Positions 1 to 41,860 of a stretch of DNA of 64,000 nt are shown here, one piece after another. The notes beneath the pieces are model-generated. The model searched no databases, had not been told where the DNA came from, and saw nothing but the letters and a program-made list of their open reading frames with translations. The stretch is from Candidatus Falkowbacteria bacterium (lineage in GTDB: Bacteria > Patescibacteriota > Patescibacteriia > Patescibacteriales > UBA12465): NCBI GenBank assembly GCA_026396805.1, contig JAPLVZ010000011.1, positions 54,135 to 118,134 on the forward strand. Reading direction: 5' to 3'. A program made the position numbers and the translations under genes. How positions within the stretch are numbered: position 1 is the stretch's first letter; each line of letters opens with the position of its first letter.

Positions 1-2476
1 CGACGGCGCGATTTTTGCTCGTCCCGGCCGTGACCACGGTAAAGGTCCCGAATGATTCATTGATGTCCGGAGCCATAATCTTGATGCCCATATTACGGCA
101 TTCTTCAATCTCAATCGCTACGCGATCAGTGTCGCCCTGGTCCGAAGTTAAAAGCGCCGCCATGAATTCTACCGGCCAATGCGCTTTTAAATACGCAGTC
201 TGATAACCGATAAGGGCGTAGCAGGCGGCATGACTCCGGTTAAAGCCATAACCGGCGAAAGGTTCGATAAAAGAAAAGACTTTCTCGCCTAATTCTTTAT
301 AAACGCCATTTTTCACTCCGCCTTCGATAAATTTTTCTTTCTGTTCGGCCAGTAATGAAGGGATTTTCTTACCCATGGCTTTGCGTAAAATATCGGCCTG
401 ACCCATGGTAAAGCCGGCTAAATCTCTGGCGATCTGCATGACTTGTTCCTGATAAATCGCGACGCCGTAAGTCTTTTCCAAAATAGGCGCCAATTTCGGG
501 TGGAGATAGCTTACTTTCTTGGTTTGGTGCTTGCCGGCGATATAATCGGGAATCCATTCCATCGGTCCCGGACGGTATAAGGCGACCATGGCGATAATAT
601 CTTCAAAAACCGTCGGCTTCAGTTCGCGCAGACAGCGTTTCATGCCGGAAGATTCAAACTGGAAGACGCCGGTAGTTTCCCCGGTTTGAAATATTTTATA
701 CGTCTTGGCGTCGCCAAGCGGAATCTTATCAATATCTATTTCCAATCCGCGGGTATTTTTAATGATTTTTAGAGCCGATTCGATGATAGTCAGATTTTTT
801 AAGCCCAAAAAATCCATTTTTAACAGGCCCAAGTCTTCAACCGGATGAAGCGAATATTGCGAGATAACGCTCTTATCGGCGGAAGAAGCGTATTGGATGG
901 GCACGTATTCAGTTAAGGGTTCTTTGGTGATTAAAACGCCGCAAGCATGCGTTGAGGCGTGGCGCGCGACGCCTTCCAGCCGCTTCGCGTAGTCAAGAAT
1001 TTTCTTGGCGGCCGGTTCGCTGTTATACATTTCCTTTAATTCGGGAACGGTTTTGAGCGCTTCATCCAGCTTCATGAACATCGGAATGCTTTTGGAAATC
1101 TTATCGCAATATTCATACGGTTCGTCCAAAACGCGGCCGACATCGCGCACGGCCGCCCGAGCCGCCATCGTTCCGAAAGTGATAATTTGGGCGACATGAT
1201 TCTGGCCGTATTTCTTTTCCACGTATTTCAAAACTTCGCCACGCCGTGTATCGGCAAAATCCATATCGATATCGGGCATGGAAATACGATCAGGATTCAG
1301 GAAGCGCTCAAAAAGCAAGTCGTATTTAAGAGGGTCTAAATTAGTGATGCCGGTCAGATAGCAAACCAGCGATCCGGCGGCGCTGCCGCGGCCCGGACCG
1401 ACGACAATCTTATTGTCTTTCGCCCAATTGATAAAATCGGCGACAATCAAAAAATAAGACGGCCAACCCATTTTCGTTATCACCGCCAACTCATATTCTA
1501 AACGTTCCTGAATCTTGGCCGTTTCTTCGTCGCTCGCCTCGGGAAAACGTTTGCCAATTCCCCGCTCGCACCATTCTTTCAAGTAAGAAGCGCCGTCATA
1601 CCCGCTCGGAACTTCAAAATGCGGCAATTGGATATTACCCAATTCAATTTCCACATTGCACATCTCCGCGATTTTCAAGGTGTTGGCGATCGCTTCCGGC
1701 GTTTCTTCGAAGGCGGCAATCATTTCCGCGTTCGGGCGCAAAGAATAATCGCCGTGACCGAGCATTTTCATCCGATCGCTGTCGGTAATTTTTTTCTTAC
1801 TCTGCAGACATAAGAGGATATCCTGCGCTTCAGCGTCTTCTTTCTTAAAATAATGGACATCATTAGTCGCGACCAGAGGCACGCCTAATTCACGAGAGAA
1901 TTTAATCAGAGCCTGATTGACCTTATCCAAGTCCTCCAATTCCGGATGATCCATTATTTCCAAGTAAAAATTACCTTGCCCGAATAAATTATTATATTCA
2001 TTTATTCTGGTTTTGGCTTCTTCTAACTTATCGGCAATAATTAAACGCGGAATTTCTCCGGCCAGACAGGCCGTCGAAGCGATCAGACCTTCATGATGTT
2101 TTTGGAGTATTTCCCAGTCAATCCGCGGTTTATAATAAAACCCCTCGATATGAGCGTGGGAAACGAGTTTGATAAGGTTCTTATAGCCGACCAAATTCTT
2201 AGCCAATAAAAGCAAATGATAGCCGCGGCCGTCTTCACGCGTATTCTTATCAAAGCGAGAATTAGGGGCGACATAGGTCTCAACTCCTAAAATCGGCTTA
2301 ATTCCCGCCTTTTTAGCCTTCTGATAGAACTCTATGACTCCATACATGGTTCCGTGGTCGGTCAAGGCGATGGCCGGAGACCCTTGATCTTTAGCAAAAT
2401 TAACCATCTCGTCCAGCTTAGTTAAGCCGTCAAGCAAGGAATAATGACTATGATTGTGGAGATGGACAAAAGACAT
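1..2476 (-). CDS. dnaE: DNA polymerase III alpha subunit (N-terminal ~825 codons; remainder lies beyond window start)
   Basis: Absent from the ORF track because the frame is open to the window edge. Manual translation from ATG (complement of 2474-2476) gives MSFVHLHNHSHYSLLDGLTKLDEMVNFAKDQGSPAIALTDHGTMYG (PHP domain). Later motifs: GPGRGSAAGSLVCYLTGITNLDP, KMDFLGLKNLT, ALYRPGPM, GYGFNRSHAACYA. Confidence 0.93.
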   Translation of the reverse strand, partial: MSFVHLHNHSHYSLLDGLTKLDEMVNFAKDQGSPAIALTDHGTMYGVIEFYQKAKKAGIKPILGVETYVAPNSRFDKNTREDGRGYHLLLLAKNLVGYKNLIKLVSHAHIEGFYYKPRIDWEILQKHHEGLIASTACLAGEIPRLIIADKLEEAKTRINEYNNLFGQGNFYLEIMDHPELEDLDKVNQALIKFSRELGVPLVATNDVHYFKKEDAEAQDILLCLQSKKKITDSDRMKMLGHGDYSLRPNAEMIAAFEETPEAIANTLKIAEMCNVEIELGNIQLPHFEVPSGYDGASYLKEWCERGIGKRFPEASDEETAKIQERLEYELAVITKMGWPSYFLIVADFINWAKDNKIVVGPGRGSAAGSLVCYLTGITNLDPLKYDLLFERFLNPDRISMPDIDMDFADTRRGEVLKYVEKKYGQNHVAQIITFGTMAARAAVRDVGRVLDEPYEYCDKISKSIPMFMKLDEALKTVPELKEMYNSEPAAKKILDYAKRLEGVARHASTHACGVLITKEPLTEYVPIQYASSADKSVISQYSLHPVEDLGLLKMDFLGLKNLTIIESALKIIKNTRGLEIDIDKIPLGDAKTYKIFQTGETTGVFQFESSGMKRCLRELKPTVFEDIIAMVALYRPGPMEWIPDYIAGKHQTKKVSYLHPKLAPILEKTYGVAIYQEQVMQIARDLAGFTMGQADILRKAMGKKIPSLLAEQKEKFIEGGVKNGVYKELGEKVFSFIEPFAGYGFNRSHAACYALIGYQTAYLKAHWPVEFMAALLTSDQGDTDRVAIEIEECRNMGIKIMAPDINESFGTFTVVTAGTSKNRAV

Positions 2477-2514: not shown

Positions 2515-2543
2515 ATTCTAGTATAAGAAGCCTTGGCTGACAA
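2515..2543 (-). promoter_or_regulatory. sigma70-type promoter for dnaE (TTGTCA-17-TAGAAT)
   Basis: Minus strand: TTGTCA (2543-2538), 17-nt spacer, TAGAAT (2520-2515), 38 nt upstream of the dnaE ATG. Confidence 0.55.
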
Positions 2544-2544
2544 C

Positions 2545-2573
2545 TTGACACCATTTTATAAAAAATGTATAAT
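2545..2573 (+). promoter_or_regulatory. perfect-consensus sigma70 promoter (TTGACA-17-TATAAT) with no CDS downstream
   Basis: TTGACA 2545-2550, 17-nt spacer, TATAAT 2568-2573. Sits back-to-back with the dnaE promoter. Confidence 0.7.
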
Positions 2574-2579
2574 TGAAGT

Positions 2580-2760
2580 AGTTCTTCATTTTAACTAGGT
2601 TTAGAACTGAAACCCGGGACGGGATAGGCAGGTTAGTGTTGTATTCGTAATTCTCATTCACTCATTTTCCCTACCGGGAAGGCTTCTTTACATAGGAGCC
2701 TTTTTCATAAAAGGAGCCTTTTTTCTTATAAGAAGAGCCGGCGACCCGGCTCTTTTATTA
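2580..2760 (+). ncRNA. candidate ~180-nt small RNA, family unknown
   Basis: Bounded by the consensus promoter and an intrinsic terminator, with no ORF. Visible stems: AGTTCT/AGAACT, CCCGGGACGGGA/TCCCTACCGGG, AAGGCT/AGCCTT. Confidence 0.4.
2733..2760. terminator. intrinsic terminator between the convergent candidate sRNA and parB
   Basis: Stem GAGCCGG (2735-2741) / CCGGCTC (2746-2752), loop CGAC, followed by TTTTATT. Confidence 0.65.
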
Positions 2761-2792: not shown

Positions 2793-3677
2793 CTATAACT
2801 TGTTTATTTTTTTTAATATCGCTATTAATTCTTCTTCACTATAAAAATCAATCACTATCTGGCCGCGTTTGCCCCGTCTCTTTAATTCCACTTTCGTCCC
2901 CAAAAATTCGCCCAATTCGTTTTCTTGGGCGCGGTCGGAATAATCTTTTTCCTTTGTTTCTTTAGTGCCGGTCAATCTTTTGATCTCCGAACCGGTGGCC
3001 GCGACCGTCAGGTTCTGGCGCAAGATTTTCTTCAGCATGTTCAGCTGTTTCGCCTCGCTTTCCAAGCTTAATAAATATTTAGCATGCGCCTCGGAAATCT
3101 TGCCGTCAGCTAATGCCTCTTGAATCGCCGGCGGCAGAGCTAAAAGACGTAAAGCGTTGGCGACGCTCGAACGAGCCTTGCCGACTTTTTTGGCCGTCTC
3201 TTCTTGAGTAATATTAAATTCATCAATCAAACGCTGATAAGCTCGGGCGATTTCCAAGGGATTAAGATTTTCGCGCTGAAGGTTTTCTATCAAAGACAAT
3301 TCTAACTTCTTCTGATCCTTCTCCTCTCGGACTATCACCGGCACTTCTTTTAAGCCGATGAGTTTGGCGCTACGCAAACGGCGTTCGCCGGCGATAAGTT
3401 CGAACTTGTCCCCTTTCCTGGTAACGATTAAGGGCTGAATTATTCCGTGCTGTTTAATAGATTCCGCCAGATCATTTAAAGCGCTTTCAGAAAAATGCGT
3501 CCGCGGCTGTTGGGGATTAATATCTATCCTATCGGGACTTATTCTTAGGATTCTGTCGCCGTCGTTTAAAACCACGGTTTCCTCTTCCGAGCTGGCCGCT
3601 TTAAAAGGGTTTTGTCCGTAAGTAACGGTTTTTTTGGGGATTAAGGAGCCGAGTCCTCGGCCTAAACCTTGAGGCAT
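2793..3677 (-). CDS. parB: chromosome partitioning protein ParB/Spo0J
   Basis: 294-aa ORF with the ParB-box motif LIVTRKGDKFELIAGERRLRSAKLIG and HTH TQEETAKKVGKARSSVANALRLL. Confidence 0.93.
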   Translation of the reverse strand: MPQGLGRGLGSLIPKKTVTYGQNPFKAASSEEETVVLNDGDRILRISPDRIDINPQQPRTHFSESALNDLAESIKQHGIIQPLIVTRKGDKFELIAGERRLRSAKLIGLKEVPVIVREEKDQKKLELSLIENLQRENLNPLEIARAYQRLIDEFNITQEETAKKVGKARSSVANALRLLALPPAIQEALADGKISEAHAKYLLSLESEAKQLNMLKKILRQNLTVAATGSEIKRLTGTKETKEKDYSDRAQENELGEFLGTKVELKRRGKRGQIVIDFYSEEELIAILKKINKL

Positions 3678-4474: not shown

Positions 4475-4504
4475 ATACAGATATTATATAGCAAAGAATC
4501 CCTT

Positions 4505-4533
4505 TTGACAATTAATAATTTATTGATTATACT
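4505..4533 (+). promoter_or_regulatory. sigma70-type promoter for tRNA-Leu (TTGACA-17-TATACT)
   Basis: TTGACA 4505-4510, 17-nt spacer, TATACT 4528-4533. The tRNA starts 19 nt downstream. Confidence 0.65.
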
Positions 4534-4551
4534 AAACTCGTAATAATAATC

Positions 4552-4638
4552 GCCCGAGTGTCGAAACTGGTAGACGATCACGACTCAAAATCGTGCGGCC
4601 TCACGGCCATGAGGGTTCGACTCCCTCCTCGGGCACCA
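4552..4638 (+). tRNA. tRNA-Leu(CAA), class II long variable arm, CCA encoded
   Basis: Hand-folded. Acceptor GCCCGAG/CTCGGGC; anticodon arm CACGA-CTCAAAA-TCGTG; variable arm GGCC-TCAC-GGCC; T arm GAGGG-TTCGACT-CCCTC; 3' end ACCA. Confidence 0.92.
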
Positions 4639-11855: not shown

Positions 11856-12292
11856 GTTATTAGAGCAGCCGTAAGCCGGATTCTGTTCTAGCGATCATTT
11901 ATCTAGGCGCGCCATTGCTGGCGAGCTCGAGCGAGCTACTTACCTTAACTCGTTCCGCCATCCGCCAACCGGCGGAGGCGGACGAGTTAGTTTGCTCTTG
12001 CTTCTGATAGGGTTTACCACGGCATCTCCGTCACTGGAGGCCGAAGCCGGTAGCCCCGAAGGGCATCCAGCCACTTTTCACCTTTGATTCTGTCAAAAAT
12101 TCCAGAATTAGTATTGTCTCTGTGGCACTTTCCCTAATCCATTTAGTCTTAAAACGAGACTAGCCCGTAAATTAAGAAAAATAGACCGGTGGGCGTTACC
12201 CACTATCATATTTGCTTATAAATAAACAAATTACGAAGTCCGGACTTTCCTCTCTATTAAAAATAGAGCAATCGCCCGCTTACTCTAATAAC
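11856..12292 (-). ncRNA. rnpB: RNase P RNA, bacterial type A
   Basis: Minus-strand read contains GAGGAAAGTCCGGACTTCG, GTGGGTAACGCCCAC, AGGGAAAGTGCCACAGAGA, GCCGTGGTAAACCC..AAGCAAGAGCAAA and CCTAGATAAATGATCGCTAGAACAGAATCCGGCTTACGG. P1 pairs GTTATTAGAG with CTCTAATAAC. Confidence 0.9.
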
Positions 12293-26711: not shown

Positions 26712-26975
26712 ATGGCCGACAAAATTATTTTACCATCTAAAGAAATAATAACCCCTATCTGGATTTCTGTTTCCGAGGCCGCCTCTTTGGGTGGGGTCGG
26801 AGGCAAGACTATCCGCCGCGCCATTAAAACTGACCCTAATTTACGTTTCCGCATAGTCAAGAATCGCTACCAGATAGAATTCGGCTCCCTGCTCTACTTT
26901 CTCCACAAGAACACCAAGCTCAAAAATAAGCTTAAAGACTTCGGCCTCGGCCAATATGTCAAAGAATGGAAATAA
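26712..26975 (+). CDS. small excisionase/MerR-type helix-turn-helix DNA-binding protein
   Basis: 87 aa. WISVSEAASLGGVGGKTIRRAIK..RFRIVKNRYQI resembles the HTH_17/excisionase-family fold pattern. Confidence 0.65.
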   Translation: MADKIILPSKEIITPIWISVSEAASLGGVGGKTIRRAIKTDPNLRFRIVKNRYQIEFGSLLYFLHKNTKLKNKLKDFGLGQYVKEWK

Positions 26976-39168: not shown

Positions 39169-39615
39169 TTATTTCTTCTTTCCCGGTTTCGAGTATTTCA
39201 TCCTACGGATGAATTTACGAACCCAGAGGGGGTTCGCTTCGGAAACAAGCCGGACGCCGTATTTTACTAGGTCTTCAGGATTTATTACACCGTCTCCATA
39301 ATAATGAGGACGAGTCTCGTCCTGTGCCCAGAACCAGTTTTGAGGCAAAACATTATTCAAGGTAATCGGGTCGGGAAAATGACCCAAATAAATAGCATAT
39401 GTCCCTGAATAAGCATTGTTATTAAGAATCATAAAATCGCCAAATTTTAATTTTAGAACTGGATTCTTTGTTTCTTCCGCGGTGATAATCGCAAAATCCT
39501 GATCTGACGTCTGAATTTTGAAACAATTTAAACCCTTTCGTTCTATCCGTTGAACAGCTATGTCCATTAGCGATTCATGAATCTTTTCTCTGGTGGTCTC
39601 TTCAGTTTTCTTCAT
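39169..39615 (-). CDS. hypothetical protein
   Basis: 148-aa ORF with no recognisable motif. Confidence 0.5.
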   Translation of the reverse strand: MKKTEETTREKIHESLMDIAVQRIERKGLNCFKIQTSDQDFAIITAEETKNPVLKLKFGDFMILNNNAYSGTYAIYLGHFPDPITLNNVLPQNWFWAQDETRPHYYGDGVINPEDLVKYGVRLVSEANPLWVRKFIRRMKYSKPGKKK

Positions 39616-39718
39616 CTTAGATCGATTTTTTTCGTGTTATTTAAGAACTATGGTTATATTAATACATATTATGGTATATGTCAATACACAGATTATTCGC
39701 TATTTTACGTGTTTTTTA

Positions 39719-41569: not shown

Positions 41570-41860
41570 CGCAGTTGGCTGTGAACACATTAGTTCTAAA
41601 CGCAGCTTCCTCAAGTAATTGAGGTCGAATAACGAGGTGAATTGCTGGAAGTCTAAATCCGTGAGGATAAGATAATCAGCAGCCAAGCCCTGATTTTCAG
41701 GGAAGGTTCAGAGACTATCCCGTAAGGGAGTACTTCTCTAATTCTTAGAGCAGGAAGCGCCTCGCATCCATTTCAATGGATGATGATATAGTCCACCCCA
41801 CTTGGAAACTAGTGGATAAGTGTAACCAATTGGTCGTCGGTTCGAATCCGACCCCGGGAG
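41549..41860 (+). tRNA. tRNA-Asn(GUU) interrupted by a group I intron (exons 41549-41582 and 41823-41860)
   Basis: - Acceptor TCCCGGG/CCCGGGA, discriminator G.
- D arm GCGC-AGCGGTA-GCGC.
- Anticodon stem GTTGG/CCAAT; spliced loop CTGT|TAA.
- T arm GTCGG-TTCGAAT-CCGAC.
- CCA not encoded. Confidence 0.8.
41583..41822 (+). ncRNA. group I intron (240 nt, ORF-less) in the anticodon loop
   Basis: - Conserved core: GCAGCCAAGCCC (41679-41690), GTTCAGAGACTA (41706-41717), GATATAGTCC (41785-41794).
- IGS GCAGCT (41602-41607) pairs with exon GGCTGT, giving U.G at the splice site.
- The intron ends in G.
- GTAA-tetraloop hairpins are present. Confidence 0.85.

Follow-up and report, generated by a model that had tools for sequence, protein, structure and literature searches.

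The parB–dnaE locus

The window, that is, the whole 64,000-nucleotide stretch of DNA analysed here, was derived from a genome of Candidatus Falkowbacteria (Patescibacteria/CPR), and the ParB that it encodes was identical to NCBI MCX6794829.1. Runs ERR15302170, ERR15302214 and SRR20698651 are example samples rich in this organism. Between the 5' part of dnaE and parB lay a spacer of 316 nt (2477-2792); as both genes are on the minus strand, this spacer separates co-directional genes. A sequence-only reading that preceded this analysis had rightly placed a promoter between dnaE and parB, and its gene layout was corrected, parB and dnaE being co-directional on the minus strand. The candidate RNA encoded in the spacer was oriented antisense to the parB/dnaE pair, with dnaE, parB and parA as its neighbours. 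The genes and predicted elements of the locus were as follows.

1-2476, minus strand: 5' part of dnaE (DNA polymerase III alpha); the start codon, read in reverse complement, is at 2474-2476 and the translation begins MSFVHLHNHSHYSLLDG
2515-2543, minus strand: dnaE promoter, with -35 TTGTCA (2543-2538), 17 nt and -10 TAGAAT (2520-2515); 10/12 consensus positions in the promoter scan
2545-2573, plus strand: candidate sRNA promoter, with -35 TTGACA (2545-2550), a 17-nt spacer and -10 TATAAT (2568-2573); 12/12 consensus positions
2580-2589, plus strand: predicted start A2580 (7th nt past the -10) and the 5' motif AGTTCTTCAT, conserved as AGTTC[A/T]T among relatives
2580-2608, plus strand: hairpin P1, AGUUCU...AGAACU, in the MFE fold and in the window variant only
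2613-2678, plus strand: hairpin P2, with arms CCCGGGACGGGAT (2613-2625) and TCCCTACCGGG (2668-2678) and a variable apical region of ~40 nt, in the MFE and centroid folds
2679-2705, plus strand: T1, a dedicated intrinsic terminator, with stem AAGGCUUCU/AGGAGCCUU (2679-2702) and U-run 2701-2705
2694-2705 and 2712-2723, plus strand: two copies of the direct repeat AGGAGCCTTTTT, from the repeat search
2731-2759, both strands: T2, a bidirectional hairpin, AGAAGAGCCGG-cgac-CCGGCUCUUUU, positive in the terminator scan on both strands
2793-3677, minus strand: parB, an ORF of 294 aa, with Pfam ParB_N, HTH_ParB and ParB_C on the identical protein P0001

At NCBI, P0001 (the same protein as the window ParB) is named ParB/RepB/Spo0J family partition protein of Candidatus Falkowbacteria. 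The loci compared are given L numbers below; the dnaE orthologue in L083-L085 carried Pfam PHP, DNA_pol3_alpha and DNA_pol3_finger domains. The dnaE promoter had an equivalent (TTGCCA/TTGTCA ... TAAAAT/TAGAAT) in nearly all Falkowbacteria spacers, and its region was 97% identical between the window and L002, a locus whose ParB was 96% identical to that of the window. The -35 hexamers of the dnaE promoter and of the candidate promoter stood back to back on opposite strands, 1 bp apart.

Two further short sequences recurred in the spacer. TATAAGAAG was found once between the hexamers of the dnaE promoter (2522-2530) and once just ahead of T2 (2727-2735), and AAGAAGCCTT (2525-2534) was the exact complement of the 5' arm of T1 (2679-2688).

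Candidate promoter and predicted start

The perfect TTGACA-17-TATAAT reported by the sequence-only reading was present on the plus strand as described, and was the sole 12/12 site in the 64-kb window. Promoter sites with at most one mismatch numbered 6 in the window compared with 0.45 expected from shuffled sequences, an enrichment of about 13-fold, and none of 100 shuffles reached 6 such sites, which implies that promoters of this kind are truly used by the organism. One near-consensus promoter (4505-4533, plus strand) lay directly ahead of a tRNA-Leu gene (4552-4638), so such promoters are plausibly real and tied to stable RNA genes here. The abundance proposed for the candidate RNA is predicted from promoter quality only.

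Transcription would start at A2580. A general role of AGTTC at +1 as an initiator of strong promoters was rejected, as just one other of ~33 strong promoter-like sites in the window carried it (39684, minus strand). At that site (39615-39684, minus strand), TTGACA-17-TAATAT and 6 nt were followed by AGTTCTTAAATAAC, near-identical to the 5' sequence of the L002 candidate RNA, AGTTCTTAATAAC; the site led into an ORF of 148 aa (39169-39615) with no Pfam match. The likeness to the L002 RNA 5' end may reflect chance or a shared 5' element.

Terminators and length of the predicted RNA

The GC-rich hairpin with T-run that the sequence-only reading had seen at the end of the segment was found at 2731-2759 and is here called T2. 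Its stem (2731-2756) had 11 pairs, 6 of them GC, and a stability of -17.4 kcal/mol, far more stable than shuffles, and was followed by UUUUAUU. T2 was 100% identical to its counterpart in L002 and 97% identical to that in L082; it is mainly the terminator of parB on the minus strand, and a plus-strand backstop for the candidate. A second terminator, T1, lay 50 nt upstream of T2, with a T-run on the plus strand only, and was likewise far more stable than shuffles (-13.1 kcal/mol, z = -4.4). Because T1 precedes T2, the main predicted RNA is ~127 nt long (2580-~2706), and a product of ~180 nt (to ~2759) would represent read-through. The length of ~180 nt proposed earlier was revised accordingly.

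Pairing in T1 was preserved despite changes on both arms, which read GGCTTCT/AGGAGCC in the window, GGCTTCTT/AAGAAGCC in L082 and GGCTCTTT/AAAGAGCC in L002. Other variants had GGGGTCTC...GAGACCCC and then T5-T8 in the place of T1 (-15 to -21.5 kcal/mol).

The direct repeat noted earlier was present as two copies of AGGAGCCTTTTT, the first of which was the 3' arm of T1 plus the U-run. The second copy was degenerate in L002 (AGGAGATTTTTT) and in L082 (AATAAACCTTTTT), indicating a local duplication rather than a conserved element. Between T1 and T2, L002 had three tandem units of ~18 nt (CATAAAAGAGCCTTTTT-like). Together with the recurrence of TATAAGAAG and the complementarity of AAGAAGCCTT to the T1 5' arm, these units suggest that T1 itself originated when the flank of T2 was duplicated locally.

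Coding potential and predicted fold

No plus-strand ORF of at least 20 aa was found downstream of the candidate promoter and none was conserved in relatives, in agreement with the earlier description of the segment as ORF-less; the sole listed plus-strand ORF (2533-2598, 21 aa) overlapped the promoter itself. On the minus strand there were just two ORFs, one of 20 aa and one of 47 aa that spans both promoters (2518-2661); these were not preserved in relatives because the indels were not multiples of three. A coding role was rejected on both strands, since no ORF was conserved and the short ORFs differed between variants; the 47-aa minus-strand ORF and an ORF of 23 aa starting at ATGAAGAAC were interrupted in L094 and L089.

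The MFE fold of the RNA from A2580 comprised P1, P2, T1 and T2 (-55.2 kcal/mol, z = -3.5), and in both the MFE and the centroid structure these elements formed a row of four or five local hairpins. The outer stem of P1 was absent from L002 and L082, and all that they shared of it with the window was a short TAGTT/AACTA hairpin. The arms of P2 were 100% identical in the window, L002 and L082, with 24 nt invariant across the window clade, and the region that they enclose differed among these three by indels of 5-12 nt. P2 offered no covariation because its arms never vary, and none was found in the other helices apart from the terminator among the three window-clade variants. Consensus folding of these three recovered P2, T1 and T2, with pair counts that are unreliable because MAFFT misaligned the L002 arm, three sequences also being too few for statistics.

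The body of the window RNA was rich in G and U and poor in C (e.g., GGUUAGUGUUGUAUU). It contained GGTTAGT at 2631-2637, inside the apical region of P2, and GGTTTAG upstream at 2598-2604. By prediction, the GGUUAG positions were no more accessible than other parts of the RNA.

Conservation of the module among relatives

Synteny of parB and dnaE was observed in ~40 Falkowbacteria loci, with spacers ranging from -1 to ~2700 nt. The spacer contents varied as well: some spacers contained nothing, and others had small hydrophobic ORFs encoded on the same strand as parB, a protein gene in plus orientation (L006) or an ORF-less insert (L014). The protein gene of L006 was driven from the same divergent promoter position as the candidate. 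The spacer is an insertion hot spot; together with L006, the cases noted were L015, L020, L021, L023, L028, L029, L033, L034 and L036-L038, many of which had an apparent short ORF on the parB strand, hydrophobic by eye, followed by a terminator of its own. The parB-dnaE spacer of L014 contained a different perfect TTGACA-17-TATAAT (1094-1644, reverse, equivalent to the plus orientation of the window), followed by an ORF-poor segment of ~400 nt with two terminators and an 11-bp long-range closing helix (z = -2.9). The L014 segment had no Rfam match, and no similarity to other loci beyond the first ~55 nt beside dnaE.

Before relatives were looked up by ParB, the insert of the window had been found only in L002. 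Relatives were then gathered by ParB identity (87-100%) and represented one Falkowbacteria subclade, in which the module recurred in eight distinct, species-level variants: that of the window (= L083-L088), L002 (= L081), L082, L089/90, L092/93, L094/95, L097 and L100. All eight variants had TTGACA-17-TAT[A/T/C][A/G]T at the same position, with an invariant -35 and a C-poor body (10-20% C). Each ended in a stable hairpin, of between -13 and -21.5 kcal/mol, that had a run of 5-8 T behind it on the plus strand only, and the parB terminator came next. Unit length varied from ~75 to 165 nt, L100 being the shortest (73 nt). The motifs GGTTAG, GGTTTAG and GGGTTAA occurred one to eight times per body, with only one or two in L100 and L002, and, across 788 kb of related DNA, clusters of GGTTAG-type motifs hardly occurred outside the module.

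At the 5' end, AGTTC started exactly 6 nt past the -10 in six of the eight variants, in each of them as AGTTC[A/T]T, and the 6-nt discriminator itself varied. The two forms of the 5' motif, AGUUCAU vs AGUUCUUCAU, differed by 3 nt, and the first 10 nt of the RNA were predicted to be mostly unpaired in 6/8 variants. Between clades, identity was 82% in the promoter and 71% in positions +1 to +7; third positions of parB codons reached 58%, and the discriminator 38%. The RNA body changed faster than synonymous sites: compared with L082, the body showed 81% substitution identity and many indels, while third positions were 89-90% identical, and compared with L002 the values were roughly 60-75% and 83-86%. 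The conservation of the candidate promoter could partly be explained if it acted as an A/T-rich upstream region for the dnaE promoter on the opposite strand.

The module was present once per locus, and no second copy was found in the window or in 100 loci; a repeated or mobile element was rejected on this basis. A scan of metagenomes with both conserved P2 arms recovered only the L002-type locus.

Upstream of parA, an ORF of LAGLIDADG type (weak Pfam match) was observed beside a tRNA gene in L082 (684-1340), L092 (1-506) and L093 (1-593). In the window-identical loci L083 and L084, the same position was occupied by ORFs of 469 aa and 111 aa with no Pfam match.

Loss of the module

At this locus the module was absent from L001, L003, L091, L096 and L099, and from the spacers of more distant Falkowbacteria that were read. 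In the ParB tree these five loci, together with L098, which retained a remnant, were nested in the module-bearing clade next to L100, indicating that the module is ancestral to the subclade and dispensable. In the five loci TTGACA was joined directly to a hairpin homologous to T2, all between them being gone, and in L098 the -10 had decayed to TAGAAA, with neither body nor T1. Since the -10 was decayed in L098 and both -10 and body were missing from the module-less loci, conservation of the promoter tracks the presence of the body.

Comparison with known RNA families and systems

The sequence-only reading had proposed an RNA that was 6S-like, SRP-like or novel, and had named an Rfam search (6S RF00013 and the SRP models) as a check. 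This search gave no family at gathering threshold in the spacer, its only matches in the window being RNase P RNA (bacterial class A, 164 bits, 11856-12288, minus strand) and a group I intron (41602-41815, plus strand, 86 bits), around which ARAGORN called no tRNA. No match to 6S or SRP RNA was obtained between 2400 and 2900 even at E≤10, and matches at E 0.2-10 were weak, terminator-like only, and to unrelated sRNA families. The modules of five other variants gave no Rfam match at E≤0.01.

Resemblance to 6S and SRP RNA had been argued from the size range and from the strong promoter expected of such genes. Those RNAs are near-universal, whereas the candidate was confined at this locus to one Falkowbacteria subclade and was lost within it. 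6S RNA (RF00013) was rejected because the MFE and centroid folds were local hairpins rather than a closed rod, with neither a 5'-3' closing helix nor a central bubble, and likewise in the other variants. SRP RNA was rejected because the bacterial models had no match at gathering threshold anywhere in the window, in addition to the negative search of 2400-2900. A novel small RNA, the third option, is plausible.

RybB and OmrA/B are encoded by intergenic sRNA genes that have their own sigma-70 promoter, a Rho-independent terminator and a conserved 5' seed. The candidate resembled genes of this type in being an ORF-less promoter-to-terminator unit, most conserved at the 5' end and terminator, and lineage-restricted; it differed in having no sequence relation to any Rfam family and in its host, an uncultivated CPR bacterium. 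GcvB uses a G/U-rich single-stranded region to pair with C/A-rich sites in mRNAs. The candidate body is likewise G/U-rich and C-poor, but it had no match to the Rfam model, its G/U stretch was neither conserved in sequence nor predicted to be preferentially unpaired, and its complementarity to the window's start regions was not enriched.

CsrB/CsrC, RsmX/Y/Z and CrcZ are decoy RNAs built of repeated motifs. Similarly, the candidate carried a short motif in variable copy number (1-8), poorly conserved between copies, together with a strong promoter and terminator and a rapid turnover between species. Its motif was GGUUAG/GGGUUAA, however, and not GGA or A-rich, and was not predicted to lie in accessible loops. 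Membership of the CsrB/Rsm type, recognised by GGA in loops, was rejected: GGA occurred in the window RNA, and none in the L094 body.

TIGR-Tas RNA-guided systems have been reported in CPR bacteria and phages, and their arrays lie adjacent to a Nop-domain Tas protein and consist of two-spacer repeat units processed into 36-nt guides (PMC12045711). The candidate shared with TIGR arrays the short tandem repeats in a presumed transcribed non-coding stretch of a CPR genome, but it lacked UG...CCA box motifs and repeat units with two 8-12-nt spacers, the repeats of the module being 8-21 nt without interspaced spacers. A TIGR array was rejected because there was no adjacent Nop-domain protein and there were no dual-spacer units giving 36-nt guides. 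A full-text literature search found no paper on regulatory RNAs or sRNAs of CPR/Patescibacteria.

Interpretation of the module

In keeping with what is generally expected of sRNA genes, the segment had its own promoter and, on that strand, an intrinsic terminator; these two were conserved along with the start motif. It had no conserved coding potential on either strand and no match in Rfam. The best explanation for a conserved shell of promoter, start motif and terminator, which surrounds a non-coding interior that bears motifs and changes fast, is an sRNA gene. On balance, and with modest confidence, the comparative evidence points to a real, dispensable, independently transcribed and lineage-restricted non-coding sRNA gene of one Falkowbacteria subclade; the RNA family that it would represent is probably lineage-specific and so far undescribed.

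From these features we infer that a sigma-70-type consensus promoter starts the RNA at A2580, that the RNA ends ~127 nt on at T1 (~2705), and that read-through past T1 would be stopped at the parB terminator T2 (~2759), giving ~180 nt. The RNA would consist of a mostly unpaired conserved 5' end (AGUUC[A/U]U), a C-poor body bearing GGUUAG, GGUUUAG and GGGUUAA in variable number, and a strong terminator hairpin, and in the window clade the conserved P2 stem would enclose the motif-bearing body. It would act in trans as a regulatory RNA, and for its mechanism we prefer base pairing between mRNA and the conserved 5' end, which is predicted to be free. This end is complementary to AUGAAC / AUGAAGAAC, a start codon with one or two codons after it. 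The terminator and the motif-rich body would then form a scaffold or a platform for protein binding. A role of the RNA as a motif-repeat decoy ranks a close second behind pairing by the 5' end. A search for duplexes with 55 translation-initiation regions of the window did not set the RNA apart from its shuffled controls, as 14 of the 40 did equally well.

Several observations count against the sRNA reading: the fast-changing body, the lack of covariation beyond the terminator, the loss in a nested lineage, the single copy, the motifs not being exposed, the null target search in the window, and the possible role as a dnaE upstream region. A rival reading is a functionless transcript, whose strong divergent promoter would matter only for the adjacent dnaE promoter through RNA polymerase competition, supercoiling coupling or a block to parB read-through, with T1/T2 kept to stop antisense transcription into parB. 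The back-to-back -35 hexamers, 1 bp apart, fit such a coupling, as do the conservation of promoter and terminator around a body that exceeds the rate of synonymous sites and undergoes duplication and deletion of short units, the use of the same divergent promoter position for a protein gene in L006, and the dispensability of the module. A promoter-terminator cassette, however, has no need of AGTTC[A/T]T held at a fixed spacing, of the 24 invariant nt of the P2 arms in the window clade, or of a C-poor, motif-rich composition in all eight bodies, and the body-less lineages lost the -10 too, yet keep dnaE and its promoter. We regard promoter coupling as unlikely, and as the strongest of the alternatives.

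It seems quite improbable that the segment is a relic in decay, left by an earlier gene or by a small insertion into a hypervariable spacer, with its promoter and terminator owed to chance or recency. Survival of the promoter, the start spacing and the terminator in eight variants would not be expected of a relic at a parB third-position identity of 58%, and neither similarity to the cargo of other relatives nor a remnant of an ORF was found. Such decay would agree with the spacer being an insertion hot spot (-1 to ~2700 nt) that in one relative or another carries a protein gene, an ORF-less insert or small hydrophobic ORFs, with a body evolving at or above the neutral rate, and with the reduction series within the clade from L100 (73 nt) through the remnant of L098 to no module at all. 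Highly improbable is the proposal that the short repeats, rich in G and T, work at the DNA level as iterons or as operator or centromere-like sites for a DNA-binding protein acting on dnaE or par, with promoter and terminator incidental: short direct repeats in variable numbers do lie beside parB and upstream of the dnaE promoter, and the window has no canonical parS anywhere (TGTTTCACGTGAAACA, ≤3 mismatches), but repeat spacing is irregular (8-21 nt) without helical phasing, the promoter strand is the C-poor one in all variants, one or two motifs are all that L100 and L002 have, and the proposal gives no role to plus-strand-only terminators or a conserved promoter.

If the segment is an sRNA gene, a more far-reaching version can be formulated, in which a Patescibacteria lineage would here show its first recognisable family of regulatory sRNAs, a highly expressed RNA whose conserved 5' end and GGUUAG repeats, variable in number, titrate an RNA-binding protein or a set of mRNAs and whose position beside dnaE/parAB is functionally meaningful; we consider this version distinctly unlikely. 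Taken alone, it is one more lineage-specific sRNA candidate, useful and not surprising. CPR/Patescibacteria are mostly uncultivated, and a unit that sequence alone suffices to define is a concrete target for metatranscriptomes. Near-consensus sigma-70 promoters are also a usable signal for non-coding genes in these genomes.

Other features of the window

Overlapping divergent near-consensus promoters were also observed at 4483-4638, one of them ahead of parA (4511-4483, minus strand) and the other being the plus-strand promoter at 4505-4533, directly downstream of which lies the tRNA gene, a tRNA-Leu(CAA). A listed ORF of 469 aa (GTG at 4558) overlaps this tRNA gene, so its true start must be further downstream. 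Between 26500 and 26975, three copies of an inverted repeat (TTAAGTCTA-N9-11-T[A/G]GACTTAA) lay over two tandem near-consensus promoters (26506 and 26578); downstream of them, a small plus-strand ORF begins at 26713. This arrangement looks like that of a multi-operator, autoregulated small regulator.
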